Shown: positions 20,306 through 52,299, counted from the first letter of the stretch. The stretch is 64,000 bases of DNA from a bacterium (GCA_030680695.1 JAUXUT010000149.1:536324-600323); one strand, 5' to 3'. Notes: generated by a model from the sequence alone, not told the origin. Translations and numbers: made by a program.

Positions 20306-20362
20306 TATTTCTTAACTTCGTTTTACCTCTTGCCTCGTGGGTTGTCCGTATTAGAATGGGTG

Positions 20363-20549
20363 GTGAGAAGTTCGGTCGTGCCGATCTGCCGGGATAGTAG
20401 GCAGGACTCCGCCAATTTGCATGCACGGAGACGAGGAGGTGTTCGGTAAAACGAACTGCCCCAGGCCCCTGAAAAGGCCGAATCGCGAGACAGTACTAAA
20501 GCTGAGACGATCTCTTCTCAAGCACCCGTTCGCGGGTGCTTTTATTTTG
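20363..20549 (+). ncRNA. candidate ~190-nt small RNA between yebC-like gene and ruvC (unclassified; 6S- or SRP-like architecture possible)
   Basis: Promoter-like TTGCCT-16nt-TAGAAT at about 20329-20356; strong terminator AGCACCCG-TTCG-CGGGTGCT + TTTATTTT at 20522-20549; 5' TGAGAAG can pair with CTTCTCA just before the terminator; internal hairpins (GTTCG-GTAAAA-CGAAC). Confidence 0.3.
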
Positions 20550-20563
20550 CTATCATACGCCAC

Positions 20564-26640: not shown

Positions 26641-26872
26641 ATCCCCAGTATATCTTCTATTTTCTTTATAAAACTAAAACTATTCCTATTAAAGGTGTGG
26701 ATATGTGGATAACACACTCAACGGCCTTATATAAACATATAACACCAACCCAGAATCTCAGAACCTGTTGAATAAACTTTGATTTATCCACCACCACTGA
26801 AATGAACACCGAACCAATCCGTCTTATACCCAATCTGTCCCCAACAAACCAACACAGAAAACCACAGGTTAT
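26641..26872. promoter_or_regulatory. candidate oriC (DnaA-box cluster + AT-rich DUE) in dnaA-dnaN spacer
   Basis: TGTGGATAT-TGTGGATAA tandem (one perfect consensus box), TTATCCACC and TTATCTACA boxes, plus an AT-rich stretch (TATCTTCTATTTTCTTTATAAAACTAAAACTATTCCTATTAAA). Confidence 0.6.
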
Positions 26873-28294
26873 CTACATGATAAGAGACCGGATATGATTC
26901 AACTCCTGAAGAAGTACGTGGTTGGACTTTATATCCTCCTTTATTTTCTCGCAAGAGTGTATGACGGTTGTATGGTCACGACCACCAAGCTTTTCACCAA
27001 TCGATGGGTACGAGATATTCATATCTTCACGTAAAAGATACATTATTACTTGGCGTGGTTTAACCACCTCTTTTTTACGTGTTTTTTCGTAAATATGACT
27101 TTCGTTTATGTTATAGAAATCGGAAACAAGTTTCACAATATCTTTAACAGAAATAGATTTTTTTGGTTTAAGACTGTTTTTAAGCAGAGCCTTAATATCT
27201 ATAATGTTTAATTCCCTACCCTTAACCTGCATTTGAATGGCTATGGAATTGATTATTCCCTCCAATTCACGGATATTGCCATCTATACTGTGGGCCAAAA
27301 ACTCAATAATCTCTGGGGTGAGGTTTATGCGGCGTTGGGACATTTTAGCCCGCAAAATAGCAAGCCTAGACTCATAATCTGGTGTAGACACATCAACAAT
27401 CATTCCTGCGTTAAAGCGCGATTTTATACGATCTTCTAACTCAGGAATATGGTTGGGGTGCCTATCAGACGAACAAATAAGCTGCTTGTTGTTCTCATGG
27501 AGAGAATTAAAGAGGTGAAAAAACTCTTCTTGCGACTTCTCTTTACTCGAGAAGAATTGAACATCATCCATAATAAGGACGTCGTATTTTCGATAACGCT
27601 CCTTGAAATGATTCGCCCTCCCGAGCTGCAATGAGTTCATATAATCAACAGCAAACCGCTCGGACGTTACGTAGTACACCTTTTTAGATGGATGGTGTTG
27701 TTTGATGTGATTGCCAACAGCCTGTGTAAGGTGTGTTTTTCCACGTCCTGTATCTCCATAGATAAAGAGTGGGTTGTAAGCAACTCCAGGATTTTTCATA
27801 ACAGCCTGCGCCGCAGCATGGGCGAGCTCGTTAAATGGACCAACCACAAAAGAATCAAAAGTATATTTTGGATTAAGGTTGTCTTCTTTGTTTATATAAA
27901 AGTCTTGCAGAGGCAGTTCGAAAGTCGGGGCAAGTACCTTTTTTGGTTCTTCTGCGGCTTCCTGTTTTTTCTCGTTTATCTTACCAATTACGTATTCTAT
28001 AGCCCTCACATCGTTACCGAAGTCACGGAGGTGTTTGAGTACGGTCTTGTGGAACTTGCTAGAAAGCCAATCTTTGGCGAATACGCTCGGAACCGACAGA
28101 TATACGACACCGTCAGATATTTTGTGAATATGAGTCTCCCTAAACCACATCGTGAAATTTCCTTTCGATACGGTGAGTTCGATCGCCCCAAGCACATTCT
28201 CCCAAAGTTTTTTATTATCTATTGAGGCCACAGGTTTTACTTTTTGATATGAGTAAGTATATAGTGCCGTTTGAATCAGAGAACTTGTGAACAA
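26873..28294 (-). CDS. dnaA: chromosomal replication initiator DnaA
   Basis: 473 aa; AAA+ Walker [11 protein letters not shown], Walker B, C-terminal DnaA-box binding HTH (..[11 protein letters not shown]..). Confidence 0.9.
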
Positions 28295-28835: not shown

Positions 28836-29579
28836 ATGATTTCTTTGTATAACACATATATTTACGAGCCCCTCTATAACGGTCTCATCCTTCTTATTGA
28901 TTACCTACCATTCCTTGATGCGGGAATCATTATTATCATATTCACGATTATCGTCCGCATCATAATATTTCCACTTTCTAAAAAAGCGGCTCGCACCCAG
29001 GTCGTCATGAAGGCTCTAGAGCCGGAGTTGAATGCCCTTAAAGAGCGCCACAAGGACGACAAACAAGGTCAGGCTGTCGCCATCATGGGTTTCTACAAAA
29101 AGAACGGTATAAACCCTTTCTCAAGCATTTTTCTTCTCATAATCCAGCTCCCGATCATCTTTGCACTATACAAAATCTTCTACTCAACCGGACTTTCGGC
29201 TGTGAATGGTGAAATACTGTACTCGTTCGTTGCTATGCCGGCCCAAATAAACACCGCCTTTCTCGGATTGTTCGATGTTACACAAAAGAGCGTTGTTCTC
29301 GCTGTCATCGCCGCCGCCTCACAGTTCCTCCAAATTCATTTTTCCATGCCTAAACCCCCAGCAAAGACCGGAAAAGGTGGTTTTCAAGAGGATTTTGCGC
29401 GCAGCATGCATATGCAGATGAAGTACGTCTTTCCCATCTTCATACTTTTCATCGGATATCACGCAGCTGGTGCACTCGCCATATATTGGACCACAAGCAA
29501 CATCTTTATGATCGCTCAGGAGATATATGTACGCAGGGAGCTTGCCAAAGAAATGGCGCTCAAAGAGAAGAAGGTCTAA
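28836..29579 (+). CDS. yidC: membrane protein insertase YidC (short form)
   Basis: 247 aa polytopic membrane protein following rpmH-rnpA; YidC/Oxa1 conserved core. Confidence 0.85.
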   Translation: MISLYNTYIYEPLYNGLILLIDYLPFLDAGIIIIIFTIIVRIIIFPLSKKAARTQVVMKALEPELNALKERHKDDKQGQAVAIMGFYKKNGINPFSSIFLLIIQLPIIFALYKIFYSTGLSAVNGEILYSFVAMPAQINTAFLGLFDVTQKSVVLAVIAAASQFLQIHFSMPKPPAKTGKGGFQEDFARSMHMQMKYVFPIFILFIGYHAAGALAIYWTTSNIFMIAQEIYVRRELAKEMALKEKKV

Positions 29580-30817
29580 AGACCAAAGCGATAGAGCCAG
29601 AGACTCATATCTTTCTTGTTTGTGAATATGATGTGAGAGTCGTCGTTGCTTACGGAAAGCCTAAACATATCCATTTCTTCTAGGGCATCAAACTGAGGAT
29701 CGAGTATAAAGCCGGTGTCGCCTGTTTTCACATCTATTTTCCAAAGACTGTCACTGAAAGACACACTGCCCTGGTACCAGTCGTCCGGATAGGTTCCTGC
29801 TGGTACCACAATAGGCACCGCACAATAAATAATGTTGGCTTCGGTATTGGCCCAAGCGCATTTATCGGCGAGGGTTGCCACTGAAAGGGCCAGGGTGTTA
29901 CGTGATGTGGTGTCGAAAGACGCGGACGCTATACCCCCACCCTGTGCACCGGACATGAAAACATGACTGCTTGAAGGATTAATGTTTCCATTCAATCCCA
30001 ATATTGATGACATTGCGTTAGTGAAAGTTCCAGTTGCGACGTCGAGAATATATCCATATCCATAAACAACACCACTTGGTTTTGTCGAAAGGAACGCCGA
30101 TTTCGCACCATTTCTTGATATAAGCCATCCGGAAATGTCCGACGATAGAGCAACTCGTTTACCTAATCCGTTTACATTCGTCTCAATCAATACACCGCCT
30201 GTGGTCGTTGGGTCTAGGTAAAGGATTTTTCCTGCCGCAACAGCGATTTCAGATATGCTGGCAGGAAGGAAATATCCCTCGAGGGGAGGAGTTGATGTAG
30301 ATGTTGTGCTGGTTACTGTTGAAAGCACACCGTAGAACGATTGAATAGAAGTTCCGTCTTTGAGGTAACGCATAATAACTTCCCTACCGTTGCTAGACCA
30401 CAGTGCCTCATATATTTGGGGAATAGTCACATTCGATATCTTCTGCTCGCCTGTTTCAAAGACTGGTGATTCATAGATGTGGCCAGTGGCTCGATCAACG
30501 AAACGTACAGAGACGGCTTTAGAGCTAGACGAAACAAACGTTGCACCAGCAGCCGGTTCAGCCCAAAGTTTTCGTAGGTTGGGTAGGTATACAGAGCTGT
30601 CGATGTCTATAATACCTGTACCGCCCGTGTCACCAGTTGAAGTTGCTTGGCCCCCTGTGCCACCCTGTCCACTTGGGAATGGGAATAGACCTTGGTCAGT
30701 CTTATTAATAGACGTCGAAGTCGAGTCCTTGTCATACAGGAAAAGGAACCAACCAAGCGTCGCGAGGGCTGTGATTATAAGGAGTATTATTAAGACAATG
30801 AATGTTTTTCGATACAT
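29576..30817 (-). CDS. hypothetical N-terminally anchored extracytoplasmic protein (last gene of T4SS-like operon)
   Basis: 413 aa; TM anchor then Gly/Thr-rich linker and a large repeat-like beta-rich domain. Confidence 0.4.
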   Translation of the reverse strand: MYRKTFIVLIILLIITALATLGWFLFLYDKDSTSTSINKTDQGLFPFPSGQGGTGGQATSTGDTGGTGIIDIDSSVYLPNLRKLWAEPAAGATFVSSSSKAVSVRFVDRATGHIYESPVFETGEQKISNVTIPQIYEALWSSNGREVIMRYLKDGTSIQSFYGVLSTVTSTTSTSTPPLEGYFLPASISEIAVAAGKILYLDPTTTGGVLIETNVNGLGKRVALSSDISGWLISRNGAKSAFLSTKPSGVVYGYGYILDVATGTFTNAMSSILGLNGNINPSSSHVFMSGAQGGGIASASFDTTSRNTLALSVATLADKCAWANTEANIIYCAVPIVVPAGTYPDDWYQGSVSFSDSLWKIDVKTGDTGFILDPQFDALEEMDMFRLSVSNDDSHIIFTNKKDMSLWLYRFGL

Positions 30818-30821
30818 GGGT

Positions 30822-31844
30822 TTATAGGCAACTGCTACAAATTGTTTTTATTCTTTCTGCCGTTTCTTTACGGAAGGTGTCGGCCTCAGTACGTTTGCCG
30901 AAACTTTCTAATCGTGCAGCTGTTTCCTCACCATTCCTTTTCATATGTTCAGCGATTTGGGTGGTATTTACATATTGACCGGTCGATATTTTTTCTCGGT
31001 GTTTATTTAACTGCCAGAGCTGGCCGGTTTTTTGTTGGAATATGTAACGGTCTATATCATTATCTTCGATTGCTTTTTTGTACCGGTCGTCATTGGTGAG
31101 TTCATATGCCGCCACGAGTGATTTTCTTTTTTCATCATAGGCATTCATGCCACTTTGGATTGCCTGATCGACGTTGATCTTAGTTTTAGAGTCCCAATTT
31201 AAGATAGAGCTCTGCATTCTTTCTATGTTTGCTTCTGCAAGGGCTTTGGTTCGAATCGTTGATTCCTTAACTATCAATTCTGCTCGCTCTGTTTTTAACC
31301 GTAATAAGGATGACGAATCTGTGGTGGAGGCAATCTCGGCAGATGCTATTTGTGCGTCATAAGCAGCCATCAGCTCCTTAAGTTCACGTGAGGTTCTCTG
31401 TGCGTCACGAAGCGTTTTTATAGCAGAATCAAGATTTTTTTGCGCAGCAACAAGACCCTGAAGCCTACCCGATCCCCCAGGAAGTCGAAGATTGAAATTA
31501 ACCAGGTCTTTGTTGATAGTTTGCAGAATAATGAATGAGGCAAGGATGACACCAAGTCCAAGGAAGGCATTAGTTATCCTTTCTTTGGCCGCAGATTTGC
31601 TACCAATCGATTCTTGGTACATGTATTCGAAACCGCCCCAGATAATCATGATGACGGCGATCACCGCCCCGATACCGATGGCGAGCCCATACACACCGCT
31701 TATGACTTTTATTGGGTCTGTTACTGTGCCCTCCTTGAACACTCCTGGTAACGTGGTGAGAGGTTTAAAGTCCTCTGCATACACAACACCAGCTGAGATG
31801 GCGAATGTTGCAAGTACCGACAAAACTAGAGCTTTCTTATTCAT
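30822..31844 (-). CDS. pilin-like two-TM protein (TrbC/VirB2-like topology) with C-terminal coiled-coil domain
   Basis: Signal peptide (..AISAGVVYA/ED), then two hydrophobic helices (ISGVYGLAIGIGAVIAVIMIIWGG; FLGLGVILASFIILQTI) as in T4SS pilins, then ~230 aa predicted coiled coil. Confidence 0.35.
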   Translation of the reverse strand: MNKKALVLSVLATFAISAGVVYAEDFKPLTTLPGVFKEGTVTDPIKVISGVYGLAIGIGAVIAVIMIIWGGFEYMYQESIGSKSAAKERITNAFLGLGVILASFIILQTINKDLVNFNLRLPGGSGRLQGLVAAQKNLDSAIKTLRDAQRTSRELKELMAAYDAQIASAEIASTTDSSSLLRLKTERAELIVKESTIRTKALAEANIERMQSSILNWDSKTKINVDQAIQSGMNAYDEKRKSLVAAYELTNDDRYKKAIEDNDIDRYIFQQKTGQLWQLNKHREKISTGQYVNTTQIAEHMKRNGEETAARLESFGKRTEADTFRKETAERIKTICSSCL

Positions 31845-32880
31845 ACCTGATTATTATCGCACTGTTTGCACCCTGCAGAAGTTTTTGGGAGTTCTGTATC
31901 GTGACACCGATTGATGATGCACCCGCTTGCCCTGTTTTTCGCAAGATAACACCACTTCGGTTCTGGAAACTTGGTACGGTCTGACCGTTTAGCTTCCATG
32001 AGTACGATAGTGCAGCACTATTTCTTACAGGAACCGAGAAAAAATAAGGTTCAGCAACAATTTCAACCTCATCGTTCACCAGATTAACAGAACGCAGCAA
32101 AGATTTTTCATAAAGCGTTCCATACAAGCCACTATTCTCGTAAAATACGATTTTCGGCACAATTGGGCTTATGGTCACACTCCTCCTTGCAACGATGTTG
32201 TCGCGAGGAGCGGACACTTCGACCATAATGTCCTCACCAGGACGCAGGTAGCTCGTCTGGGACGTGATAAAAGTGTTCTTACCGTACCCAGATGCGTTTG
32301 CCTGGACCTCGCCGTTCTTACTCCAAGAATATATGAGTTCTTTCGGGTTGATTCTTTTACCAGAGAAATCAACGAATTCTGGTAGTGCGATGACTTTGAA
32401 TGCTCCGTTGTATGAATGAAGAGCCTTACCTTTATAGAAAGGTGGTGTATATGTATCGCTTTCCCATACCAAGGCGACATCAGCTGGGCGTATAACAATA
32501 CTTGTATTGAATGTTCCTGTGCCCACGGTAACGACCGAGACATGGATGGTGCTCATTGACCCAACGCCGCCCGCCCTAGCCGACAATGATTTGAGGCCGA
32601 CGCCACGCTGAACTTCTTTACCATCGATGGACCAAACAACAAGGGCCGAATCAAGGCCCATACTGTAGCTCTGTAGGCGTACATCGAACAACCCGTTTGG
32701 CTGAGGTACTTCAGGTATAAGAGATAGCGTAAGTGGATCAGATATACCTGGTATGGTTTGGGCAGACGCCGAAGATGGCGCGATGATTCCAAAGGCCCAG
32801 GTCAGGGCAAGCGAAGCAATTGTACAGGCTATCGCGAGGGTTATGCGAGGCATACCCTTTAATAATAACACAGGCGACAA
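31837..32880 (-). CDS. hypothetical secreted protein (T4SS-like operon)
   Basis: 347 aa with signal peptide; beta-rich; no family recognised. Confidence 0.4.
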   Translation of the reverse strand: MSPVLLLKGMPRITLAIACTIASLALTWAFGIIAPSSASAQTIPGISDPLTLSLIPEVPQPNGLFDVRLQSYSMGLDSALVVWSIDGKEVQRGVGLKSLSARAGGVGSMSTIHVSVVTVGTGTFNTSIVIRPADVALVWESDTYTPPFYKGKALHSYNGAFKVIALPEFVDFSGKRINPKELIYSWSKNGEVQANASGYGKNTFITSQTSYLRPGEDIMVEVSAPRDNIVARRSVTISPIVPKIVFYENSGLYGTLYEKSLLRSVNLVNDEVEIVAEPYFFSVPVRNSAALSYSWKLNGQTVPSFQNRSGVILRKTGQAGASSIGVTIQNSQKLLQGANSAIIIRYE

Positions 32881-32883
32881 GAC

Positions 32884-34683
32884 TTATTGCGATAGTCTTT
32901 TAGCTTCCTTGATAGCTAGTATCTGTGAAGGGTCGGATGTTATGATTTGGTCTTCGGTATACGAGGCAATGATCTTTATAGCCACGTGTTTAAGGCCAAC
33001 AAAGAATATTCCCTCCCCCACATCTGATTCGAGTAGAAGGTATTTTTCCTCATCAGTAAGATTGAAGACCTGTTGGAGCTTGTCTATAGACGACGGGGAC
33101 TGTTTAAGGAGCACCTGTATGGATGAGTTGGTTATAATCGGCAGTCCATAAGGTGATTTTAAGAAGTCGTCGACATCTTGGGTGATTGTTGCAAGTCCAA
33201 GGAAGTGCTTTCTTCCTCTTTTTGCAAGGCCAAGAAGGAACGAAGCGGTGTCTTCGGATTTCATCATCCACCACGCCTCGTCGATGACAAGGAGGCGTTT
33301 TTTAAGGTTTTTCATGACCGCAGTCTGGATGTATCGCATGACGATGTACATTGCAACTGGTTTGAGGTCGTCTTCCATGTCTCGGAGCGAGAAGACAATG
33401 AACTTCGAGTTGATATCAACGTTAGTTGGTCTGTTGATAAAGCCGGACCATGTTCCCTTGGTGTATTTGGTGAGGCGTTGGACGAGCGATTCCCCACCTT
33501 CCATGCCCGTCAGAACCAGTTCAAAGTCGGAAAGAAGTGGTGCCTGAGCATTGCTGAAGTCGGAATCTGGGGTGATATCTTTTAACGCGTATGTTTCAGT
33601 GATAGCACGGTCAATGATCGCATCTTCTTCGGGGGTGAGGCCACCCATCATGATACGAAAGAGACCGACAAGGTTTATGATGTTTGATCGTAGAACGTCC
33701 GCAGGCGCCTCGTCTTCACGTGGGGTCGGCAGGTCAAACGGATTGATGTGGTGTTCAGAGTTTAGGGATATGTTGAAGTATTTTCCTCCCGTTGCCTCTG
33801 ATAGGAACTCATATTCCTTTTCTGGGTCGATGACAATGACTTCGGTGTCGAACATGAGGGTTCGAAGGATTTCTAGTTTGATCGAATAAGACTTTCCAGA
33901 TCCAGACTTGGCGAAAGTAATCGAGTTGTAGTTTTCAAGGCTGAATCGGTCGAAGAGCACGAGCGACGAATTGTGACGGTTCACACCGTAAAGTATGCCT
34001 TTGTCGGAGGTAAGGTCGAACGAGATGAACGGGAACAGGCTTGAAAGAGGGCTAGAATTAAGCTTGGAATGGACCATGAGCTCGTCCTTGGCAATCGGGA
34101 GGTTGGATTTGTATCCCTGCTCCTGTTGGAAGAGGGCCGGCTTTACATAGACAAGTTTTGATTCAAGCACCGATTTAATTTCGGACTCGGTCTTGTCGAG
34201 TTCGGCCTCTGAGTCAGCATATATTGTGATGTAAACACCGACATCAAAAAGTTTTTCCTGAGCTTGTTGGAGTTGATCGCGGAGCTGTTCCAGATCTTGA
34301 TATGCGGTGTCGAGCATCGGATCGCGTACAAGACCCTTGCTTTCACGTATAGATATCTGGCTTTGTACCTCGGCGACCTTTTTCTGGAACTGACGCAGAA
34401 CGCGTGCGGTTTCGACCGGATGGACAAATATCGAGATGTTGAAGACTTTGTCGAGATTGATGATAGGGGCGAACCAACTTTCGGTGAGGAATCGTGGGTA
34501 CGAGATTACGAAGAATGATCGTACAATTTTGTCACCCAGGTTCAATTCGCGTGGTGTGACCTTGAGTGCCGAAGGAGCAATGACGTCTTTCAGTTCAAGT
34601 ACGCCAGCCTCGTAGATTTCTTGTGGCAACACCGGGGCGATGTTCACCTTGTCCTTCTTTTTGAATATATCGAAAAGTCCCAT
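32884..34683 (-). CDS. VirB4/TraE/Orf16-family conjugal-transfer ATPase, C-terminal ATPase part
   Basis: 599 aa; Walker A FAKSGSGKSY, Walker B LLVIDEAWWMM; collinear with Tn916 Orf16-like VirB4 from the DFIAPS region onward. Confidence 0.8.
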   Translation of the reverse strand: MGLFDIFKKKDKVNIAPVLPQEIYEAGVLELKDVIAPSALKVTPRELNLGDKIVRSFFVISYPRFLTESWFAPIINLDKVFNISIFVHPVETARVLRQFQKKVAEVQSQISIRESKGLVRDPMLDTAYQDLEQLRDQLQQAQEKLFDVGVYITIYADSEAELDKTESEIKSVLESKLVYVKPALFQQEQGYKSNLPIAKDELMVHSKLNSSPLSSLFPFISFDLTSDKGILYGVNRHNSSLVLFDRFSLENYNSITFAKSGSGKSYSIKLEILRTLMFDTEVIVIDPEKEYEFLSEATGGKYFNISLNSEHHINPFDLPTPREDEAPADVLRSNIINLVGLFRIMMGGLTPEEDAIIDRAITETYALKDITPDSDFSNAQAPLLSDFELVLTGMEGGESLVQRLTKYTKGTWSGFINRPTNVDINSKFIVFSLRDMEDDLKPVAMYIVMRYIQTAVMKNLKKRLLVIDEAWWMMKSEDTASFLLGLAKRGRKHFLGLATITQDVDDFLKSPYGLPIITNSSIQVLLKQSPSSIDKLQQVFNLTDEEKYLLLESDVGEGIFFVGLKHVAIKIIASYTEDQIITSDPSQILAIKEAKRLSQ

Positions 34684-34702
34684 GGAAGTTTATTGTAATA
34701 CG

Positions 34703-35338
34703 TTATGAAAGTGGTATTGGCTTCTCTGTATCACCAGGATTGAATATCTTATAGAAGAGCTCGACGATTTCTTCCGTTCCAAGTTCGACTGATCTAACAC
34801 CGCAACGCACAAGGCCCTGGGCCACAACCCCAACACGCTGCTCGAGCTGGCTTCGATGTTCCTCGAATTGGGCAAGACGGTCTTCTGCGCCCTGGGCCTG
34901 GGTTTTCTTTTTGCCGAGGACGCTCGAAATACCACCTGTCGTTATAACGGCCGGACTGTATGGCACGACCACAAAGAATGTTTTGGTCATGATGTTTGAA
35001 TTCTCAGTGAATTTCTTTATGAACTCTATGTATTCACGGGTCTGCATTTTCATGATGTCGGAAACCTGTTCTTTGAGGCGTCCTTCAAGTAACGCTATGT
35101 ATGGCCGTATGTCTAACTTTCTCGATTGGATGAAGATTTGCACCGAAAAGTCGAGTGAGTTGAGGAAGTTCTGGAACTGATAGATGATTGACTGCTGTTC
35201 TTCGGCCGATTTAAGGGCGAAGTTAAGAGATGAGGCCATAACAATCGACCTCAGGGAATTATCCTTGAGGATAACCACCCCCTGCCTTATTTCCTTGATG
35301 GGGACGAATTCTTGAGTTGTCTTTGCGTTGATGGCCAT
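34703..35338 (-). CDS. VirB4-family ATPase, N-terminal domain encoded as a separate ORF (split gene or frameshift)
   Basis: 211 aa; FVPIKEIRQGVVILKDNSLRSIVMASSLNFALKSAEEQQSII..FLNSLDFSVQIF matches the N-terminal domain of Gram-positive VirB4 homologues; ends in TAA 16 nt before the ATG of the ATPase ORF, in a different frame. Confidence 0.7.
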   Translation of the reverse strand: MAINAKTTQEFVPIKEIRQGVVILKDNSLRSIVMASSLNFALKSAEEQQSIIYQFQNFLNSLDFSVQIFIQSRKLDIRPYIALLEGRLKEQVSDIMKMQTREYIEFIKKFTENSNIMTKTFFVVVPYSPAVITTGGISSVLGKKKTQAQGAEDRLAQFEEHRSQLEQRVGVVAQGLVRCGVRSVELGTEEIVELFYKIFNPGDTEKPIPLS

Positions 35339-35362
35339 GATGCGTCTCGACCATTATACGTC

Positions 35363-35800
35363 CTAAAAGGTTTTCTTGCCTGCCTGGTTTTGGGCCGGAT
35401 TCTGGCTTTGTTTGATGTCGAGTGACCAGGTTAGGTCTTTGAGCTTGCTGTCAGAGAGTTTTGGCACATAGAAATCAGGAGCCACAGTCGGGGCCTCTTC
35501 CCTTGTTTCGATCGGCTTGTTTACCTTCTTCCAAATGTACAATTTGTCTCCAAACGCGTATGTAAATGCAGATTCCACCACATTTATGAACGGTTTGTTG
35601 TTAATCTTGTAAAAAGCCAAAGCCGCAGCGAAAGCCATTATCGGAAGAATGAAAATGACGCTTATGAAAAGGTTGCCGATGAGGGTATATACAACAAAAG
35701 AAAGGCCTGCCCCGCCGACGAGGTATATGAACTGTTTTATCGTGAGGGGGCCAAATATCTTGTCTTCAACCTCTATGAATTGGGGTACCTGGAATCTCAT
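35363..35800 (-). CDS. PrgI/VirB3-like small membrane protein
   Basis: 145 aa; N-terminus MRFQVPQFIEVEDKIFGPLTIKQFIYLVGG followed by two TM helices, matching the PrgI-family signature; immediately upstream of VirB4. Confidence 0.6.
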   Translation of the reverse strand: MRFQVPQFIEVEDKIFGPLTIKQFIYLVGGAGLSFVVYTLIGNLFISVIFILPIMAFAAALAFYKINNKPFINVVESAFTYAFGDKLYIWKKVNKPIETREEAPTVAPDFYVPKLSDSKLKDLTWSLDIKQSQNPAQNQAGKKTF

Positions 35801-35804
35801 GAGT

Positions 35805-36236
35805 TTATTGGATTGGTTCTCGATATGGGTCCACGGTCGTTTTCTTTGTTGGCATGTTTACCGGCTCAGTTAACTTACCTTCGATGAAGTCGTGGGCGAT
35901 GGCATGGTCATCAGCCGGTGGTGTCATCACAGGATGAACAGCCGGCGTCGGATTTTCTATTTCGGCGAGGATGTCTTCTTTAGCCATACTGTTGACTCTT
36001 TGTGAACTTTCAACAACTGATTTTCTAGCCGGAATAAATATTTCAACATTTATATCGGTGGTAAGGTCGATAGCGTCTTCAGCTGATAGGTTAAGATGGT
36101 CCTCGATTATCGAGATGAAGTCATCACTCTGGCTTTGACCAGATATAACTTTATCTACTTCCTCAGCCAGCACGCCGAGTTGATCGATGTGTAGTCCGAA
36201 TTTATCACCAATTTTTTTTAAGGTTGGGTTATCCAT
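35805..36236 (-). CDS. hypothetical acidic protein (T4SS-like operon)
   Basis: 143 aa; no family recognised. Confidence 0.35.
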   Translation of the reverse strand: MDNPTLKKIGDKFGLHIDQLGVLAEEVDKVISGQSQSDDFISIIEDHLNLSAEDAIDLTTDINVEIFIPARKSVVESSQRVNSMAKEDILAEIENPTPAVHPVMTPPADDHAIAHDFIEGKLTEPVNMPTKKTTVDPYREPIQ

Positions 36237-36238
36237 GC

Positions 36239-38605
36239 TTAGGTATATTGCTCATCATCATCTTCTGCGTCTGCATCTGGGCCAGCAGGTGTTGTTGGGG
36301 TAGCTGATTTTGGTTCCCTTCCCCCCCTTTTACCCTTTTTACCCTTTTGTTTGTTGCCTTCGATTGAATCAAATTCATCCTGTTCTTTTTTTAGCTCAGC
36401 TTTCTTTTTTTGAAGTTCAGCTGCAAGACCATCTTTACCGTCTGTTCGAGGCCTAAAACCCTTATCAACGACTTGCTTGCCAGAGGCATCAAGTACAGGT
36501 TTTCCGTTGTCCGTTCTCGGCTTTTCATAGTATTCATGACCGATTCTGTCCTTTCTGATTATATCTCCAATAGAGTCGGTGTCGCCCTTCTCTGATTTTA
36601 ACATCGCTTGTTTTTTGGTCACCACATCAGTCATACCCATAACCCTTCCAATCCTTTCATCTTGGTGTTTTTTGTACTTTGAGTAGCTATTTATTTTCTT
36701 TGCCTCGCTCCTTATTTTATCTTTCTCGGCCTGCGTCATCTTTCCTGTTTCTCTGTCGACTTGTCCCATTAGGGCGGCGGTTTCTTCTGGTGATTCGGCA
36801 GAATTAGCTTTGTGTAGCAATGCGGCTACCTTATTTTTCTTCATCATGCTCTCAAGTTCATTCTGCATACGTATTTTTTCTAGCCTAAGTGCCGCATTCA
36901 TCTTATCCACATCATCTGTCTTGGCGGCATTTTCAAGGTGGGCCATCGCGATTTGCTCGGCAATGATCTGGTTGCTTATACCAGTACTTGCTTTCTTAGC
37001 ATCCTCAACATTAGCCTTTCTGTACGCGGCATGTGCGTTATCAGTTATATCTTCGAAGGCGCTCGAATATCCCTTACCGGCGACGCCGGCGTTCATTGCT
37101 TTGTAAATAGAATCATCCTGGCGCATAGCTGCATAGCGGGCCCTGTTCTCTTCACCAGCCTTTCCTTTACCGAGATTCTTTTCTGCCCACTCCTTCTCTT
37201 TTTCCTTGAAATCTTCGACACCTGATTTAAATCCACCCTCCTCAATTTTACCAACCTTAGTTGCATCAAGTTTCACACCGGCTATATCTAGCTTTCCTCC
37301 GAGGGCACCCATCATGCTGCCGCCCGCTGTTGTTTTGCGTGCGTCAAAACTCGAAGATGCCATTTTGTTGGTCGCAGCAAGCTGCATTCTTCCCGCAAAG
37401 CCCCTCATACCGCCTTCGGCCGCTTTAGCCTGCAGGGCACCCATAGACTCTTTGTCTTGGGTGTAATTGAACGCTCTGCGTCCAATGGTTTGTCTTCCGA
37501 ATGCACCACCAAGACCAGCTATACCTCCGACGGCGATGCCGGTCGCATTCTTTGCTATGTTTGCGATAGAGCTACCGATCTCACCACTATTATCTTTGGC
37601 CACCTGAAGAGCTTTGAGCAGCATCATAATTATGATGATGAATATGACGTAGTTGACCGGTGTGAATTCTGTGCTCGCGGCGTCATTACCGAAGACAAGT
37701 GCGTCGAATCGATCGACCATGAAAAGGGTTATGTATAGGAATAGGAAGAACATTGGCAGCATCATGAGCTGCTTAAGCATCTCGTCCCACCACTTCCCTG
37801 CTTGTTTACTATAATCACCTAATGAGAAGAAAGGTCCAGTGAACCCTATCGGTGCGGTAATGAGGAGTATCATGAACGCTACAATACGGCCGACAATAAG
37901 GAAGACCATATGGAAGAATACATATATCGCAACACAGATTAGAGCAAATAGAAGTACACCTTGGGTGAAGGACTGCAAAGAGAAAGACTTCATGCTAAAG
38001 AAATCACTAAGGCTTGTCCCTGGCCCACCTGAAGTTTGCGTGAGTTTTTCCATCTGGAGTGTTGCACGTACCGACGAGCTCATACTCGATCCATCGCCGA
38101 GATTTTTTATGCCTTGCACGAGCCACGCGGTGACAACGTTGCTTGTGTCGATCATTATTTTCGTAAAGAAAAGGCTGAAGTTGAGGAGCAGTGCTGCCAT
38201 AAGAACACCAGCGATGGTTCTTTTCACCGAAGCGAGGTTTCCGATATTGAGAATAGTTTTTATACCCTCATAGATAAGTATGAAGATAAAGATCATGTTC
38301 GCGAGATCGCGTACAATGCTCCAGGTGATTCCTATGGCTTCTGAATTATAAAAACTCGGGTCGAGTGATAGTGAAACAGCGGTGTCGATAATGAGACCGA
38401 GGAGTTGCAAAATCAAGCCGCCAATTGGTATGAGCACCCACCAGAATATTTTTCCGATAAGTCCATAGAAAATATCAATACCACCAGTTAGGAGGCTCAG
38501 GGCAGCATCGGCAACTTGGGCGTTAGCCTGATGTGGCGCGAAGAAAACACCCGCAGCGACAAGGATGGTCGTTATAAGGAAAAATTGAGAGACGAGCTTT
38601 CTCAT
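36239..38605 (-). CDS. VirB6/TrbL-like polytopic membrane protein with long charged coiled-coil C-terminal domain
   Basis: 788 aa; signal peptide, then at least six hydrophobic helices in the first ~380 aa; C-terminal ~380 aa K/E/A-rich coiled coil. Confidence 0.5.
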   Translation of the reverse strand: MRKLVSQFFLITTILVAAGVFFAPHQANAQVADAALSLLTGGIDIFYGLIGKIFWWVLIPIGGLILQLLGLIIDTAVSLSLDPSFYNSEAIGITWSIVRDLANMIFIFILIYEGIKTILNIGNLASVKRTIAGVLMAALLLNFSLFFTKIMIDTSNVVTAWLVQGIKNLGDGSSMSSSVRATLQMEKLTQTSGGPGTSLSDFFSMKSFSLQSFTQGVLLFALICVAIYVFFHMVFLIVGRIVAFMILLITAPIGFTGPFFSLGDYSKQAGKWWDEMLKQLMMLPMFFLFLYITLFMVDRFDALVFGNDAASTEFTPVNYVIFIIIIMMLLKALQVAKDNSGEIGSSIANIAKNATGIAVGGIAGLGGAFGRQTIGRRAFNYTQDKESMGALQAKAAEGGMRGFAGRMQLAATNKMASSSFDARKTTAGGSMMGALGGKLDIAGVKLDATKVGKIEEGGFKSGVEDFKEKEKEWAEKNLGKGKAGEENRARYAAMRQDDSIYKAMNAGVAGKGYSSAFEDITDNAHAAYRKANVEDAKKASTGISNQIIAEQIAMAHLENAAKTDDVDKMNAALRLEKIRMQNELESMMKKNKVAALLHKANSAESPEETAALMGQVDRETGKMTQAEKDKIRSEAKKINSYSKYKKHQDERIGRVMGMTDVVTKKQAMLKSEKGDTDSIGDIIRKDRIGHEYYEKPRTDNGKPVLDASGKQVVDKGFRPRTDGKDGLAAELQKKKAELKKEQDEFDSIEGNKQKGKKGKRGGREPKSATPTTPAGPDADAEDDDEQYT

Positions 38606-38700
38606 CCCTAATATTGTACTACAAAATTAAAGTCTGGTGTAAGTAGTCTACTTGGCCTGTCTAAAAAACGGTCAATGAGCGTCCCAACCCATATCGATCA

Positions 38701-41220
38701 TTATCGAATTAATACGGGAATTGGTTTAATATTCTGTGAAGAGAAATCAAAAGCGATACCAGATAGACCACCACCACCATAAGAGCTGGTTTGAGCGACT
38801 AAGCCACTGCCCCCAGGTTGAACCTGAACAACAGCCGGCACGGTGAACTTAATCGTTCCCACCGAAAGCACCGCACCATCAGATCCTTTGGCGGTTACAC
38901 GTGTTGTGTACGACGCACCAGGCGGCAGGGTTTTGAGTTGGCCAGTGAGAATGATTCTAGAATCATGGCTTGGCCCAGTCGAGACACCAGTGAAAGTTAT
39001 ACTGCTATTTGATGCTGGTTGGAAATTACGCGTTACACCATTCTGCTTCATGCTGATGGTGATTTGAGAAAATGCATCATCAAATGTTACTGGCTGTCCC
39101 GTTGATGATTCGAATGCGACCTCGAGAGATCCGATACTCCTATCTGCGGGTGAACTCACGCTTATTTCAGCACCGAACACATCACCGGATTTGGCGGTAC
39201 CGGTTTGGCTGGCCACAGTCACTGGGCTATTTGGATCGTTATTGGTCGAAGAAGATTGGCTTGGAGAGTCAGGTTTCTGGTTCGTGGCCGTTCCAGTTGT
39301 TGATGCCGCCCCCATGACTTCTATAACCTCAACCTCTGCGAGTTCGAGTGGTCTGTAACACGAAGCATTTCCACTATAACTTTGGTAATGCTCGTTACAT
39401 GACTTTACCGCAGCGTTTTTTTGTATTCTAATTGCGGATGCATTCTGATTTACTGGAACAACGATTGGGTTATTTGTTTGACCACCGTCAATTACCGAAC
39501 TCAACCAGACTTCCCCAGCAGAAGTCTTGGCCGATATGGTGAACATGCCCAGGCTGTCGGCCCCAGATTTATCTGACACTTTCCAGATTCGAATTTCTTG
39601 TATTTTTCTGGTCTGTCCAAGGTTCACTTCCCACCACGGATTTGCATCGTCCTCGTATGTTGATGATCCTTTCACATACTGATTGGTTTGTGTAATTCCA
39701 TCTACGGCGCCACCAGGATTCGTGCCCGATGATTGGCTTGTTGGTTTAAGTAATGCGGCGTTTGCCGTGGCGTTGCCAGAACTAAACGCGCTTACAAGGG
39801 ACGCCTGTTGTTGGCTTTGTTGGTTGGTACTTGCAGTTATACCCGCATTCGCCGCTTCGTTTATGTTCCGTATGTTCGGATTAGATTCGCTGGTGAAAAG
39901 ACCTTGTGCCTCGCCTATGCTACCGATTCGGTAATCATCGAGCTCTGTGCCAGCACCGATATCAGTAGATGCTGGAAGCGCTGTTCCATAGTATTGGGCG
40001 CGATAACGATCGAGATACGTCGGACCGCTCGTCGAACGTTTTTTAGACAGGCCAAGTAGGCCGCTTGCACCTGAAATGGCTTTCTGCGCAATTTGGTTGA
40101 GGGTTGCGGCGATAACATGGTCTATTTCGGTCGCAACAGCAGACTGAATTTCAGATTGACCAAGCACAGAGCTCAATTTATCAGCAATGATTTTACCAGG
40201 AGTTTTTGTGGTCATCTTACCGGGCTTACATTGAGGCTTGGAGTCAAAATTGCTGGTAAACTCAGATAATGTTGCGGGGCTGGCATTGAAACTAGTTTCA
40301 GACGCAAGATAGTTTGTTAGGTTCTCATCCATAATCTGTTGTGATGTAATTGCAACAGAGAACGGATTGATGGACGCAGTACCTACTGAAGGATTACTGA
40401 TGTTTGCATTTGAAGCCGCAACCGTACGAGCCCGCGCCTCGCCCGCGCTCTCATATTCATCGCATGTGTCGAAGTTCAAAAATCCCGATCCAATTGTGAT
40501 TTTTTTCTCTTGTATATTTTTTGCACGCCCCGCTCTTTGGGCTAGTTCTGATTCCGCGACTAGGTAAGCACCATATACATTGTTTGTTGGCCTGGCGGTC
40601 AGACTTAGCCAATTATCCCAACCGGCACCACCGTTGTTTTGTACAAAGTTTTCGATATTGTCACCGATTTTGCTAAGGGTACAAGTAATTCTATCTTGAA
40701 ACGGGCGGCTGTATTTGAGGGCGAGCTCAAGGCGAATTTTGAAAGAAAAGTCTTTACAAAGGAAGCCGAGCTCCGTTCCTTCGATAAATGTACCCATTAC
40801 CTGGTCAGCAGCATTAAGGAGGGTTCCCTCAAAATCGGTGACAAACAAAGGTTTACCCTCAAAGCCGCTGTTCACCCAGTTCACAACACTTGCACCGATA
40901 TTACGTATAAGCGCAATAACAAGGGCTTGCCCAAGAGGTTTTAATATACACGTAGTAAGCGTATTTGTATTTACACTTCCCCCTGAGAAGATGTCGCCCA
41001 AGAATCGGCCAACGTTGGCAGATGGAACGCCCACAGCTTCTTGGACTGAACCAGGGGCTTGTGTGGCGGCGGATGTGGTAAAGGCCGCGGCGCATGCGGC
41101 AACTGTTCCAGACTGGGCCGATACCTGGCGGGGCTGAGCAAGAAGGCCTGCTGGGACCATCAAAGACGCGATGATTGCGAAACAGATTACGTGCGCTGAT
41201 AGATTTTTCATGAAGCTCAT
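38701..41220 (-). CDS. large secreted protein with F5/8 type C (discoidin) domain
   Basis: 839 aa; signal peptide; discoidin-domain signature ...GAVDGITQTN..SSTYEDDANPWWEVNLGQTRKIQEIRIW...; Ig-like C-terminal region. Confidence 0.55.
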   Translation of the reverse strand: MSFMKNLSAHVICFAIIASLMVPAGLLAQPRQVSAQSGTVAACAAAFTTSAATQAPGSVQEAVGVPSANVGRFLGDIFSGGSVNTNTLTTCILKPLGQALVIALIRNIGASVVNWVNSGFEGKPLFVTDFEGTLLNAADQVMGTFIEGTELGFLCKDFSFKIRLELALKYSRPFQDRITCTLSKIGDNIENFVQNNGGAGWDNWLSLTARPTNNVYGAYLVAESELAQRAGRAKNIQEKKITIGSGFLNFDTCDEYESAGEARARTVAASNANISNPSVGTASINPFSVAITSQQIMDENLTNYLASETSFNASPATLSEFTSNFDSKPQCKPGKMTTKTPGKIIADKLSSVLGQSEIQSAVATEIDHVIAATLNQIAQKAISGASGLLGLSKKRSTSGPTYLDRYRAQYYGTALPASTDIGAGTELDDYRIGSIGEAQGLFTSESNPNIRNINEAANAGITASTNQQSQQQASLVSAFSSGNATANAALLKPTSQSSGTNPGGAVDGITQTNQYVKGSSTYEDDANPWWEVNLGQTRKIQEIRIWKVSDKSGADSLGMFTISAKTSAGEVWLSSVIDGGQTNNPIVVPVNQNASAIRIQKNAAVKSCNEHYQSYSGNASCYRPLELAEVEVIEVMGAASTTGTATNQKPDSPSQSSSTNNDPNSPVTVASQTGTAKSGDVFGAEISVSSPADRSIGSLEVAFESSTGQPVTFDDAFSQITISMKQNGVTRNFQPASNSSITFTGVSTGPSHDSRIILTGQLKTLPPGASYTTRVTAKGSDGAVLSVGTIKFTVPAVVQVQPGGSGLVAQTSSYGGGGLSGIAFDFSSQNIKPIPVLIR

Positions 41221-41238
41221 GTTGGAATCAATTATAAC

Positions 41239-42204
41239 TTATCGTATCAACACATATCCACTTTCTTGTGCAGAGAAGGTGATACCCATGGTCCGCATGT
41301 AAGCCCTGGTTTTCAGGGTGGCTGCCGTCAGCACATTGAGCATTTCTTCATATTGACCTATTTTCGAATACGCACCAATAGGGTCGGTACTCAAAGTTGA
41401 TATGCCAACAGCGATATCGCGACTCATTTGTAAACCTTGGATGAATTCAGAGTGGGCCGACGCGATTCCTGCTGGAACCAGTATCACAATAAGCGAATCA
41501 ATCATTTTGTTATATCTGGTGATGATGCGGGCCAGAAGATCTGTATCACCAGAAGCGGGTGTACCTGTGAGCATGCGTTCAAGCACGGTAAATTCGAATT
41601 CACTCGGGTCAGCCGCTGGTGTTGAAAGGATCTTGCCGAGGGTGTTTCCGTATACGCGTAATGCGACAGCGCTGTTATCCGACGAGATATTAAGCATCGA
41701 CACATCAAATGGCTTTACGGTAGTATCGTATTCAAGATTGATTAGCTCTGCTGCTATTGCCTCGCTTAATTCATCATTTATTTCAGCGCCAGAGCTTTTG
41801 GCCTCTATGTATCGCATGAAAAGCTCTTGCGAGAAGCGGTCTGTTGCGGTCGGTACATACATATTTGTCGATGTGGTCGCCTGGATGGTGGCGCTTTCCC
41901 CAGGACCATAAACGAGCGGGTTGCGATTGGCCTTAATTTCATCATTGTCATTCATCCTGTCACCGTCGGTGTCGGGGTTGTTGGGATCAGTGCCATAGAT
42001 GGCTTCCTCCCAGTCTTTAAGGCCATCTCCATCAGTGTCGAGCTCGAGCGACCTTTTAATCATGTCGGCTGCAATGACTGATTTATCTTTCGGTGTCTCC
42101 TCTGGAAGATTGGTGGCAAAAAGTGTACCAACAATGATACAGATTGCGACAATAAGAGCGATGCCAATTTTTGTGCCCAAAAAAGAGAATACACGACGTA
42201 TCAT
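41239..42204 (-). CDS. membrane-anchored protein with thrombospondin type-3-like calcium-binding repeats
   Basis: 321 aa; N-terminal TM; DTDGDGLKDWEEAIYGTDPNNPDTDGDRMNDNDE (DxDxDG repeats). Confidence 0.5.
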   Translation of the reverse strand: MIRRVFSFLGTKIGIALIVAICIIVGTLFATNLPEETPKDKSVIAADMIKRSLELDTDGDGLKDWEEAIYGTDPNNPDTDGDRMNDNDEIKANRNPLVYGPGESATIQATTSTNMYVPTATDRFSQELFMRYIEAKSSGAEINDELSEAIAAELINLEYDTTVKPFDVSMLNISSDNSAVALRVYGNTLGKILSTPAADPSEFEFTVLERMLTGTPASGDTDLLARIITRYNKMIDSLIVILVPAGIASAHSEFIQGLQMSRDIAVGISTLSTDPIGAYSKIGQYEEMLNVLTAATLKTRAYMRTMGITFSAQESGYVLIR

Positions 42205-42241: not shown

Positions 42242-43348
42242 GTGAATAGAAAAAAGGCAATATGGATTATAGCTATAGGACTCATTGTGGTCGCAATTGT
42301 CGTCCTCTGGCTTTTCATGAGGACCAAGACTGATGTCCCTGTTGACGAGCCAGGTCCTGAGTGCCCTTTTTTCCAAACAAGTAACCCTTCTGCCCCGTGT
42401 TATTTGCCTTCAGGGGTAATAGACACACCAGAACCAACAACAGGAACAACTGTTCCGGCCACTTTTCCAGCCCAATGTGCGGATGAGGCCACGGTTATAG
42501 ATAGAAACGAATGTGTGACGGTATTGGCGGCTGAGTCTCGCCGGATCGACGCCTGTGAATTTGTTGTAGGTTCGCTCGCTAAGGCATCTTGTCTTAACGG
42601 TGTAATACAGAAGCCAGTTATCCTGCCCCAAGCACCAGATGCGTACCAAAATTATTTAGAGGTGTTTGTTAAAGGCCCTGTTTCAACCGTAGAAGTCCCT
42701 CGTGTTGTTACGAGTTCCGGTATCCCAGACATGCCTGTTGCAACCACAACAGATTCACGATTCACGATGGAGGGTTTTGTGAACCGTGCGACTACAGACG
42801 CTGAATTAAAGGTATTTGCCCTATCCCATTATCAGGCCAAGCCGGGTGAAACGGTGCAGGTATACGGTTCGGGATTTGTTTATCCAAGCACAGTGATGGT
42901 CGGTTCGATACCAATTCATGGCCTTCGCAGTGTCGACGGGTTCTCTTTGTCATTCACTGCACCATCATCGACCGGTGAATACGAAATTTCAGTTACGAAT
43001 TCAAAAGGATCGTCGGGGAGTGCTCGCCCAAAGCTATTGATTACTGATAGTCCTGCTCCACGACCACAAATAACCAGCGCCTCCCCTTCTATTGTTGATG
43101 TGTCTGGAGAAGTCACATTAACTGGAATTGGATTTATGGACACCAACATTATCACCACCACTCTCGGTGTAGTTCAAAATGTGTCTTCGAATGGGACGAG
43201 CCTCCGTTTCCGTATCGCTGACCTCACAGTGGTCTCACAAGTTAAAGATTTACCAGAAGTGAAGGGTATGAGGGTACCTGTTGGTGTATATGTGAATAAC
43301 GCTAATGGATTCAACCAAGACTTATTTTATTTCGATGTACAATTCTAA
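42242..43348 (+). CDS. hypothetical membrane-anchored extracytoplasmic protein
   Basis: 368 aa; N-terminal TM, Cys-containing region, Ig/IPT-like beta-rich C-terminus. Confidence 0.4.
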   Translation: MNRKKAIWIIAIGLIVVAIVVLWLFMRTKTDVPVDEPGPECPFFQTSNPSAPCYLPSGVIDTPEPTTGTTVPATFPAQCADEATVIDRNECVTVLAAESRRIDACEFVVGSLAKASCLNGVIQKPVILPQAPDAYQNYLEVFVKGPVSTVEVPRVVTSSGIPDMPVATTTDSRFTMEGFVNRATTDAELKVFALSHYQAKPGETVQVYGSGFVYPSTVMVGSIPIHGLRSVDGFSLSFTAPSSTGEYEISVTNSKGSSGSARPKLLITDSPAPRPQITSASPSIVDVSGEVTLTGIGFMDTNIITTTLGVVQNVSSNGTSLRFRIADLTVVSQVKDLPEVKGMRVPVGVYVNNANGFNQDLFYFDVQF

Positions 43349-52206: not shown

Positions 52207-52299
52207 GGTACCCCCTATCTTAGCATATATGGAGCTAAATTGCAAGCCCCGCGCTTACTACAGCCCTGTGTCGCCTTTTTTGCTATAATATTGTGCGAC

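Follow-up and report, generated by a model that had tools for sequence, protein, structure and literature searches.

A ten-gene type IV secretion locus beside the probable replication origin of a Paceibacteria bacterium

The 64,000-nucleotide stretch of bacterial DNA analysed here (GCA_030680695.1 JAUXUT010000149.1:536324-600323; hereafter the window) carries, on its minus strand at 29576-42204, a real and complete ten-gene type IV secretion system (T4SS) locus. The organism is a Paceibacteria/Parcubacteria bacterium near metagenome-assembled genomes (MAGs) of Taylorbacteria, not a Saccharibacterium. We have good confidence that the locus is the Paceibacteria version of the Patescibacteria-specific T4SS, i.e. 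a system derived from the MPF_FATA class, fixed as a vertically inherited operon beside the origin, with no relaxase or coupling protein in the window, and probably acting as a non-conjugative host-contact machine. Systems of this kind were published between 2023 and 2025, and the finding is thus a rediscovery. The present work adds modestly to this: it puts numbers on the contrast between a frozen motor and surface proteins that evolve fast, annotates the accessory genes specific to Paceibacteria at the level of domains, and describes a long, variable pilin extension.

Architecture of the operon and its secretion components

Ten co-directional open reading frames (ORFs) fill positions 29576-42204, exactly the limits and strand given in an initial annotation of this DNA, which had counted nine genes and left the 211-aa gene 6 undescribed (Table 1). 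Neighbouring genes are separated by anything from an 8-bp overlap to 24 bp, the sole exception being 95 bp between genes 2 and 3, and the 3' end of gene 10 runs 4 bp into the convergent yidC. Gene calling done independently on a public assembly of this genome (Logan SRR13727517 contig, locus L081) gave the same ten genes, with genes 2 and 8 slightly shorter at their starts. The GC content of the operon is near that of its flanks. Because the operon, when scanned for promoters and terminators, has sites no more numerous than shuffled sequence, we make no claim about transcription units. For comparison, a scan of one genome per species yielded 80 loci, all from Paceibacteria-type MAGs (carrying Taylorbacteria, Zambryskibacteria, Campbellbacteria or Parcubacteria labels); synteny and identity were compared in the 38 loci whose 10-kb flanks were complete, identities being relative to the window proteins.

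The operon proteins were searched against Pfam and NCBIfam profiles, matches being judged by gathering scores or curated cut-offs, and the motor gave the clearest result. Gene 7 matches the CD1110 model NF045971 (E=3.9e-111) with 372.6 bits against a cut-off of 325, over model positions 185-733 of 752, as well as P-loop_TraG (E=6.9e-27); in its translation the Walker A (AKSGSGKS) and Walker B (LLVIDEAW) motifs are both intact. Gene 6, which lies 19 nt away in a different frame, matches VirB4_plasma (E=1.5e-11, model positions 101-233), TrsD (E=4.7e-6) and positions 2-118 of the CD1110 VirB4 model, and its precomputed domain is PF26593, TraC-like. Since genes 6 and 7 match separate parts of the same CD1110 model, VirB4 is here divided between two proteins, one TrsD-like and equivalent to the N-domain, the other the ATPase proper. 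Gene 6 stays a separate ORF, of 210-233 aa, in all 38 loci. Homologues of gene 7 with a length of ~600 aa number more than 100 in Paceibacterota MAGs. The best 120 VirB4 relatives listed are 84-100% identical and are all uncultured-bacterium or metagenome records; nearly all of those with a named source are MAGs of Paceibacterota, Parcubacteria or Taylorbacteria.

Gene 5 was taken in the initial annotation for a PrgI/VirB3-like protein, which the match to PF12666 PrgI (E=1.2e-11, 45.4 bits, gathering score 27) confirms; its hydrophobic stretch at aa 23-67 leaves room for two membrane spans, and it is found in 37-38 of the 38 loci. Together, the VirB4 score above the CD1110 cut-off and the presence of PrgI and TrsD-like proteins bear out the reading of the locus as a Gram-positive-style T4SS. 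The VirB4 ATPase had further been described as collinear with Tn916 Orf16. The VirB4 identity holds, but its type is CD1110/MPF_FATA and not that of Tn916, and the supposed collinearity missed the split. Against TcpF, which we take to be the pCW3 counterpart of Tn916 Orf16, VirB4 gives E=0.0015 and 16.5 bits (cut-off 1100), and on the PrgI-family gene 5 TcpE reaches only E=0.012 compared with 1.2e-11 for PrgI. These weak TcpF and TcpE scores rule out the MPF_FA type (Tn916 Orf16/pCW3 TcpF) and, with the CD1110 cut-off passed, the system is assigned to the MPF_FATA type.

The VirB2-like component is the product of gene 9, which scores above the gathering score of PF18895 T4SS_pilin (E=2.5e-7, 31.1 bits, gathering score 26.6, aa 46-109) and also matches the NCBIfam Mbov_0395 pilin-like protein (E=7e-6). 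Its hydrophobic segments at 3-24, 44-76 and 89-112 correspond to a signal peptide and two helices, in agreement with the pilin-like topology first proposed. The pilin domain is followed by a charged and variable extension of ~230 aa; homologues range from 140 to 474 aa and are conserved in the pilin domain only. A pilin array was sought with a hidden Markov model (HMM) of the pilin domain, and the window holds one copy only. The profile searches thus uphold the TSP3 (see below), PrgI, VirB4 and pilin assignments.

For gene 3 the signals are weak but concordant. By hydrophobicity scan, the N terminus of the protein is signal-like, six or more hydrophobic segments fall within aa 1-338, and a hydrophilic, charged tail of ~450 aa follows. 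Gene 3 itself has no Pfam match; it matches the NCBIfam Mbov_0396 model (an integrative and conjugative element (ICE) transmembrane protein) below threshold (E=0.0019), a profile of its family (38 sequences) weakly matches TrwI, the VirB6 of R388, as its top PDB entry (7o3v_F, E=0.029), and four of its 38 homologues match Pfam TrbL/VirB6, again below threshold (best E=1.7e-4). As these three weak signals agree, and as gene 3 lies directly upstream of the PrgI-TrsD-VirB4 genes, we take it to be a putative extended VirB6-like protein, with conservation confined to its membrane half. The VirB6 claim of the initial annotation is in keeping with the polytopic topology and the position, its profile support being sub-threshold only. 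Between genes 3 and 5, the acidic gene 4 product has no significant Pfam/NCBIfam match and no hydrophobic segment. The same slot holds an ORF of 158-599 aa in 36/36 loci, and these ORFs, made into an HMM, recover the window protein with E=2.7e-27.

Table 1. Features of the window, with positions counted from the first nucleotide of the 64-kb stretch
Feature	Length (aa)	Position	Strand	Description
Gene 1	321	41239..42204	-	N-terminally membrane-anchored; bacterial TSP3 (calcium-binding) repeats; C-terminal domain ~200 aa
Gene 2	839 (alternative start: 836)	38701..41220	-	Secreted, lectin/discoidin-bearing, candidate adhesin
Gene 3	788	36239..38605	-	Putative extended VirB6-like polytopic membrane protein
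Gene 4	143	35805..36236	-	Acidic soluble protein; fast-evolving member of a position-conserved family
Gene 5	145	35363..35800	-	PrgI/VirB3-like membrane protein
Gene 6	211	34703..35338	-	TrsD-like, free-standing homologue of the VirB4 N-terminal domain
Gene 7	599	32884..34683	-	VirB4 ATPase, MPF_FATA/CD1110 family, without N-domain
Gene 8	347 (alternative start: 338)	31837..32880	-	Secreted/anchored, three tandem repeats of ~105 aa
Gene 9	340	30822..31844	-	VirB2-like T4SS pilin domain (aa ~1-112) and C-terminal extension
Gene 10	413	29576..30817	-	N-terminally membrane-anchored; Gly/Thr-rich linker; domain with weak TolB-like similarity
dnaN		25540-26640		
DnaA-box cluster		26696..26877	.	dnaA-dnaN intergenic region, 2.7 kb from operon 3' end
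dnaA		26873-28294		
IPT/TIG surface protein	368	42242..43348	+	PF01833 TIG E=1.7e-5; possible accessory, divergent from operon
LysM + M23 peptidoglycan endopeptidase		46770..47816	+	4.6 kb upstream; Peptidase_M23 E=2e-32, LysM E=5.5e-22
Tyrosine recombinase		52240-53238	+	Full-length alignment to XerC/XerD/XerA models

Conservation of the locus and the question of mobility

Across the 38 Paceibacteria genomes the genes follow an essentially invariant order, uvrD-ksgA-[ten genes]-yidC-rnpA-dnaA-dnaN. Within this fixed framework the proteins diverge at very different rates. Median identity is 82% for VirB4 (range 79-91%), 65% for TrsD and 58% for PrgI, compared with 60% for DnaA, 55% for UvrD, 51% for DnaN, 49% for KsgA and 48% for YidC; VirB4 identity exceeds that of DnaA, DnaN and YidC in 37/37 loci. 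The envelope/surface genes and the small soluble gene 4 have medians of 26-38%. The surface genes keep sub-domains only: gene 9 its pilin domain, gene 3 its membrane half and gene 2 its N-domain. The invariant synteny, together with a VirB4 that is more conserved than DnaA and surface proteins that diverge fast, leads us to regard the operon as a vertically inherited core locus and not as an ICE.

The initial annotation had read the locus as chromosomal and had stated that the window holds no relaxase, VirD4 coupling protein or integrase. Relaxase and VirD4 are indeed absent among essentially all non-overlapping ORFs of at least ~130 aa in the 64-kb window (Pfam/NCBIfam). The statement on integrases needs a correction, in that a Xer-like tyrosine recombinase is present. 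It lies 10 kb from the operon, beyond housekeeping genes, and is the sole recombinase in the window; it is probably a chromosome-dimer resolvase and not the integrase of an element. An ICE was considered as the source of the locus and is rejected by the invariant synteny, the conservation pattern and the Xer type of this recombinase. With the same core-gene flanks in 38 genomes, an ICE having its integrase and relaxase just outside the window is refuted and the chromosomal nature of the locus stands.

A functional conjugation or chromosome-mobilisation system, with relaxase, origin of transfer and coupling protein encoded elsewhere in the genome, is in our judgement very unlikely. The VirB4, PrgI and TrsD families otherwise occur in conjugative elements of Firmicutes and Tenericutes, VirD4-like genes are often distant from virB4 in Patescibacteria (PMC12102498), and the absence of relaxase and type IV coupling protein (T4CP) reported here covers the 64-kb window. 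Any relaxase at all is, however, found in only 103 of 3,035 Patescibacteria genomes (PMC12102498), and the invariant core-gene synteny comes without an element-type integrase or att-like boundaries. A motor more conserved than DnaA is moreover expected of a housekeeping or essential function, not of a mobile element.

The same data bear on whether the locus could be what is left of an ancient integrated conjugative element, decaying and now without function. No VirB1, VirB8, T4CP or relaxase was recognised in the operon, and VirB4 is seemingly truncated and split, as a remnant would lead one to expect. Yet all ten ORFs are intact, their positions are kept in 38 genomes and the VirB4 split is universal among them; VirB4 is 79-91% identical with intact Walker motifs, and a homologous cluster is essential in Southlakia epibionticum. 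We give this reading next to no credence, and consider it effectively refuted by the conservation data.

Surface proteins and the candidate adhesin

Five proteins of the operon are lineage-specific envelope or surface proteins, i.e. the products of genes 1, 2, 8 and 10, to which the small soluble gene 4 product is joined. The most informative is gene 2, whose protein comprises a signal peptide, an N-domain (aa ~85-400), a low-complexity linker, a jelly roll (aa ~495-635) and a beta-strand domain (aa ~668-795). It matches F5_F8_type_C (E=7.9e-6) and F5_F8_type_C_2 (E=6.1e-6), both slightly below gathering score. An AlphaFold2 model of aa 431-839 contains two beta domains with a predicted local distance difference test score (pLDDT) of 70-85, and a Foldseek search with the first of these returned the lectin domain of lectinolysin (3lei; target-normalised TM-score 0.58, root mean square deviation 2.9 A) and also a fucose-binding module (2j22, 26% identity). 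The model thus supports an F-type-lectin/discoidin-like fold for aa ~495-635. The second beta domain yielded no reliable fold assignment. The 839-aa secreted discoidin-domain protein of the initial annotation is in this way retained, the slightly sub-gathering F5/8C matches being backed by the F-type lectin fold match.

Across loci it is the N-domain of gene 2 that is conserved, the C-terminal part being variable. The N-domain has conserved cysteines and a W-I-N-S-G-F-x-G-x-P motif and is probably helical. Searches with family profiles gave it no Pfam or meaningful PDB match (none at E<=10 with one profile, a chance-level E=2.4 with another), and the AlphaFold2 model of aa 1-430, made from a 17-sequence alignment, has a pLDDT of 48 and is too poor to use.

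A possible relation of gene 2 to the VirB5/TrbJ proteins arises from a short motif that follows the signal peptide in some of its homologues, of the type AQ-x-VFD-xx-N (e.g. AQTTVFDPTN); TrwJ of R388 begins AQGIPVFDGT, with the same motif. Ten motif-bearing homologues gave sub-threshold N-terminal matches to DUF4141 (5/10, best 1.4e-5) and to NCBIfam TrbJ (5/10, ~0.01). DUF4141 genes adjoin traJ, close to traG, in Bacteroides conjugative transposons (PMC10434189). The gene 2 protein of the window has no such motif. HMMs built from 11 plasmid VirB5 proteins, full-length and N-terminal, fail to single out the gene 2 family among 4,008 ORFs, and hhalign gives a probability of 1%. Membership of gene 2 in the VirB5/TrbJ family is rejected on these grounds, and the link is kept only as a weak lead.

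That lead enters a more specific proposal, in which an essential T4SS that is independent of a coupling protein would build a lectin-tipped pilus or conduit to the host and would mainly take up host material and not send out DNA, gene 2 being a VirB5-like tip adhesin whose C-terminal lectin and beta-sandwich modules would be swapped between lineages so as to fit the surfaces of their hosts, on a fixed, ultra-conserved split VirB4 motor. Its basis is the domain architecture, the position of gene 2 directly upstream of the VirB6-like gene, the contrast in rates and the weak N-terminal motif similarity. We put it forward tentatively, and regard it as doubtful.

The remaining surface proteins could be described at the level of domains. 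Gene 1, which had been described as a TSP3-repeat membrane protein, has a hydrophobic segment at aa 4-35 and matches PF18884 TSP3_bac at aa 56-77 with E=8.5e-11, which confirms the description; it occupies the same position in 26 of the 38 full loci, with a median identity of 26%. Gene 8, found in 38/38 loci, has an N-terminal hydrophobic segment, and each of its repeats carries a conserved W-x-x-N-G motif, W82, W185 and W294 being invariant in a 37-sequence alignment. The repeats are probably immunoglobulin-like (Ig-like), given a weak match of the family profile to Ig-like phage decoration proteins in the PDB (Hoc, 3shs, E=0.0066). Gene 10 is likewise kept in 38/38 loci and has a hydrophobic segment at aa 1-29. 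Its family profile matches TolB beta-propellers in the PDB (~12 TolB entries, best 4r40, E=0.006) and a few of its homologues match PD40/DPPIV_N, which suggests a weak similarity of its domain to a TolB-like beta-propeller.

Relation to known systems, proposed function and genomic surroundings

The closest known counterpart is a cluster of S. epibionticum, SEML1_0006-0019, which Wang et al. found in 2023 to be essential for epibiotic growth (PMC10633639). That cluster resembles the T4SSs by which Gram-positive bacteria conjugate, is unusual in carrying pilins and has no recognisable coupling or relaxase proteins, and its supplementary annotation gives the same VirB6/PrgI/VirB4 neighbourhood (PMC10633639); its essentiality is independent of ComEC (PMC12857230). 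In a survey of 3,035 genomes, Quiñonero-Coronel et al. (2025) found that the VirB4 proteins of Patescibacteria form a monophyletic clade within MPF_FATA, that TrsD is their most abundant partner, that PrgI, VirB6 and VirB2-like pilins lie near virB4 and that relaxases are almost absent, the Paceibacteria cluster lying close to dnaA, dnaN, rnpA and ksgA (PMC12102498). A 2025 review makes the same points and speculates on a pilus that serves as a conduit for signals or uptake (PMC12857230), and a 2024 perspective called the role completely unknown (PMC11665869).

The window locus agrees with the systems of this clade in its core order of putative VirB6-like protein, PrgI/VirB3, TrsD-like protein and ~600-aa VirB4, in having a VirB2-like pilin in a monoderm, in being a cluster without relaxase or coupling protein, and in its chromosomal site near dnaA/dnaN/rnpA/ksgA as reported for Paceibacteria. 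Put differently, the window offers an MPF_FATA-affine VirB4, a TrsD-like neighbour, PrgI, a pilin and an origin-proximal site, with no relaxase or T4CP within its bounds. It differs in having one long pilin of 340 aa in place of an array of six short ones, in that no gene of NTF2/VirB8-like, lysozyme or peptidase type was recognised within the operon, and in its Paceibacteria-specific surface genes (TSP3, lectin, three-repeat and TolB-like). It also lacks a gene that directly follows virB4 in ~66 of the 80 relatives (among loci L007-L080, e.g. L011:11822-12238) and encodes a small polytopic membrane protein of 110-240 aa, all of one family; this gene is absent at window positions 32880-32884 (no match at E<1 in the 64 kb) and from the closest relatives L001-L005 and L070.

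With the conjugative MPF_FATA systems (CTn2/CD1110, pCF10 Prg/Pcf and pGO1 Trs) the locus shares a VirB4 above the CD1110 cut-off, PrgI and, as in pGO1, a TrsD-like protein. In contrast to them, it lies on the core chromosome and has a VirB2-like pilin; the closest plasmid-borne VirB4 proteins, from Firmicutes and Actinobacteria, share only 29-36% identity with its own; and neither a T4CP or relaxase nor a PrgK/TraG-type hydrolase or PrgB-type adhesin was found here. The search for a T4CP and a MOB relaxase covered the 64-kb window, and the locus does not reside in a mobile element. Three parts of the operon match proteins of the Mycoplasma ICE, namely Mbov_0395 (pilin, E=7e-6), Mbov_0396 (VirB6-like, E=0.0019) and Mbov_0397 (VirB4, E=1.8e-75), and the TrsD-like protein matches the N terminus of Mbov_0397 (E=1.5e-11). 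All of these matches are, however, below curated cut-offs, and the Mycoplasma genes belong to an ICE that brings its own transposase and its own functions for transfer. Such matches suggest that pilin-like proteins may occur in other wall-less or monoderm MPF_FATA-type systems and may not be unique to Patescibacteria.

Systems that work without VirD4 or a relaxase are known from Bordetella (Ptl), Brucella (VirB) and Helicobacter (ComB), their substrates including Sec-exported proteins (Ptl) and imported DNA (ComB) (established; summarised in PMC12857230). They differ in being MPF_T systems of diderms, built around a VirB7/9/10 outer-membrane core; no component of that core is present or expected here. 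By analogy with Ptl, Brucella VirB and ComB, transport by the window system might likewise proceed without a coupling protein. In the scheme that we consider best, the VirB4/TrsD motor, docked on a VirB3 and VirB6 platform, would pull pilin from the membrane, and the extracted VirB2-like pilin would form a wall-spanning pilus or conduit. Because a role of VirB4 in pilus biogenesis is established in Gram-negative systems, we infer such a pilus-building role here. The fast-evolving surface proteins, chiefly the lectin-bearing gene 2 product, would serve to recognise the host (basibiont) surface and to hold it, and macromolecules would then pass between the cells without relaxase or dedicated coupling protein. 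The non-conjugative role in an episymbiont that the initial annotation suggested has already been proposed for this system in the literature (PMC10633639, PMC12102498, PMC12857230).

Among the T4CP-less systems, ComB raises the question of import. A machine for the uptake of DNA or nucleotides, akin to Helicobacter ComB or archaeal Ced and serving a cell unable to make nucleotides, would share with ComB the absence of relaxase and T4CP from the window, and the idea has been raised for Saccharibacteria (PMC11665869). A weak CedB match (E=2.3e-9) could be cited in its favour, but it is to the P-loop only, spanning ~70 residues of the ATPase core, and no ComB7-10 or CedA/CedA1 homologues were found. 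The DNA-metabolism genes uvrD/pcrA and comM-like yifB nearby would also fit, yet they are ordinary origin-proximal housekeeping genes. In S. epibionticum, furthermore, competence depends on type IV pili (T4P) and ComEC, and ComEC is dispensable, whereas the T4SS is essential (PMC12857230). We regard import as improbable.

Several points weigh against a host-contact machine as described above. Its function is here read from genes, Paceibacteria T4SSs are known from sequence only, and the adhesin role of gene 2 is that of a candidate drawn from domain content. The VirB6 assignment draws on weak, sub-threshold matches, and the 230-aa pilin extension may be incompatible with canonical pilus packing. 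Sequence searches of the ten operon proteins returned no hydrolase or NTF2 domain, and no VirB8-like or VirB1-like component was identified in the operon. In most Patescibacteria, VirD4-like genes lie far from virB4 (PMC12102498), and the present search for them covers the 64-kb window. In favour of the host-contact machine, a frozen motor together with a fast-diversifying surface set that includes a lectin-bearing secreted protein fits a device for host recognition, and the contrast in rates nominates specific proteins as candidates for determining host range. Apart from that of Patescibacteria, no T4SS is known to be essential to the cell that carries it, and the window locus is a clean and complete Paceibacteria example of the Patescibacteria system.

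With respect to the missing VirB1, the LysM-M23 peptidase upstream of the operon (Table 1) deserves mention. VirB1-like proteins with M23/LysM domains have been associated with virB4 in Paceibacteria (PMC12102498), and the order M23-uvrD-ksgA-operon is kept wherever the flank extends that far. Its best NCBIfam matches are DipM/MepM-like. The enzyme could have a VirB1-like wall-opening function, or may be a mere cell-division hydrolase.

The operon is flanked by dnaN, dnaA, rnpA and yidC on one side and by the TIG-domain protein, ksgA, a pcrA/uvrD helicase, the LysM-M23 peptidase and a yifB/comM-like ATPase on the other. The initial annotation placed it between yidC and ksgA, which is right as to the flanks, although two plus-strand ORFs, that of the TIG-domain protein and one of 144 aa, separate it from ksgA; the comparison with 38 related genomes extends this to an essentially invariant core-gene order around the operon. 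The TIG protein has an N-terminal hydrophobic helix, and of the 38 loci only 8 have it between ksgA and gene 1; it is a possible T4SS accessory. Between dnaA and dnaN, four TTATCCACA-like DnaA boxes, one of them perfect, lie within 182 bp (the window as a whole has 29, against 13.1 +/- 3.7 expected), and the GC content dips to 0.386 near this cluster, which is the probable oriC. The 12.6-kb operon lies to the right of the cluster on the minus strand, so that its transcription runs toward the probable origin and meets the replication fork head-on; such an orientation is unusual for a long and highly conserved operon, yet it is kept in 38/38 related loci.

Further features of the window lie outside the locus. 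A PilB-type assembly ATPase of the type II secretion system (T2SS)/T4P kind is encoded 11 kb from the operon at 16566-18356 (+), with a T2SSE match of E=6.7e-116 and an MshEN domain; its neighbours, TsaE upstream and RuvB downstream, gave no pilus-related match in the scanned ORFs, no search having been aimed at pilin or platform genes. An Rfam scan of the window returned five tRNAs only. The 258 bp at 20306-20563, between yebC (a short form of 175 aa) and ruvC, match nothing in Rfam and contain no ORF that convinces. A Phd/YefM-type antitoxin domain protein (12424-12858, +, E=1.2e-13) is encoded beside holA-like and tRNA-Lys genes, and a 653-aa surface-type protein with DUF11 repeats at 6589-8550 (-). 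A 191-aa protein at 58101-58676 (+) matches Pfam TIMP (E=6.6e-6, 26.5 bits, gathering score 23.1), which is odd for a bacterium of the candidate phyla radiation.

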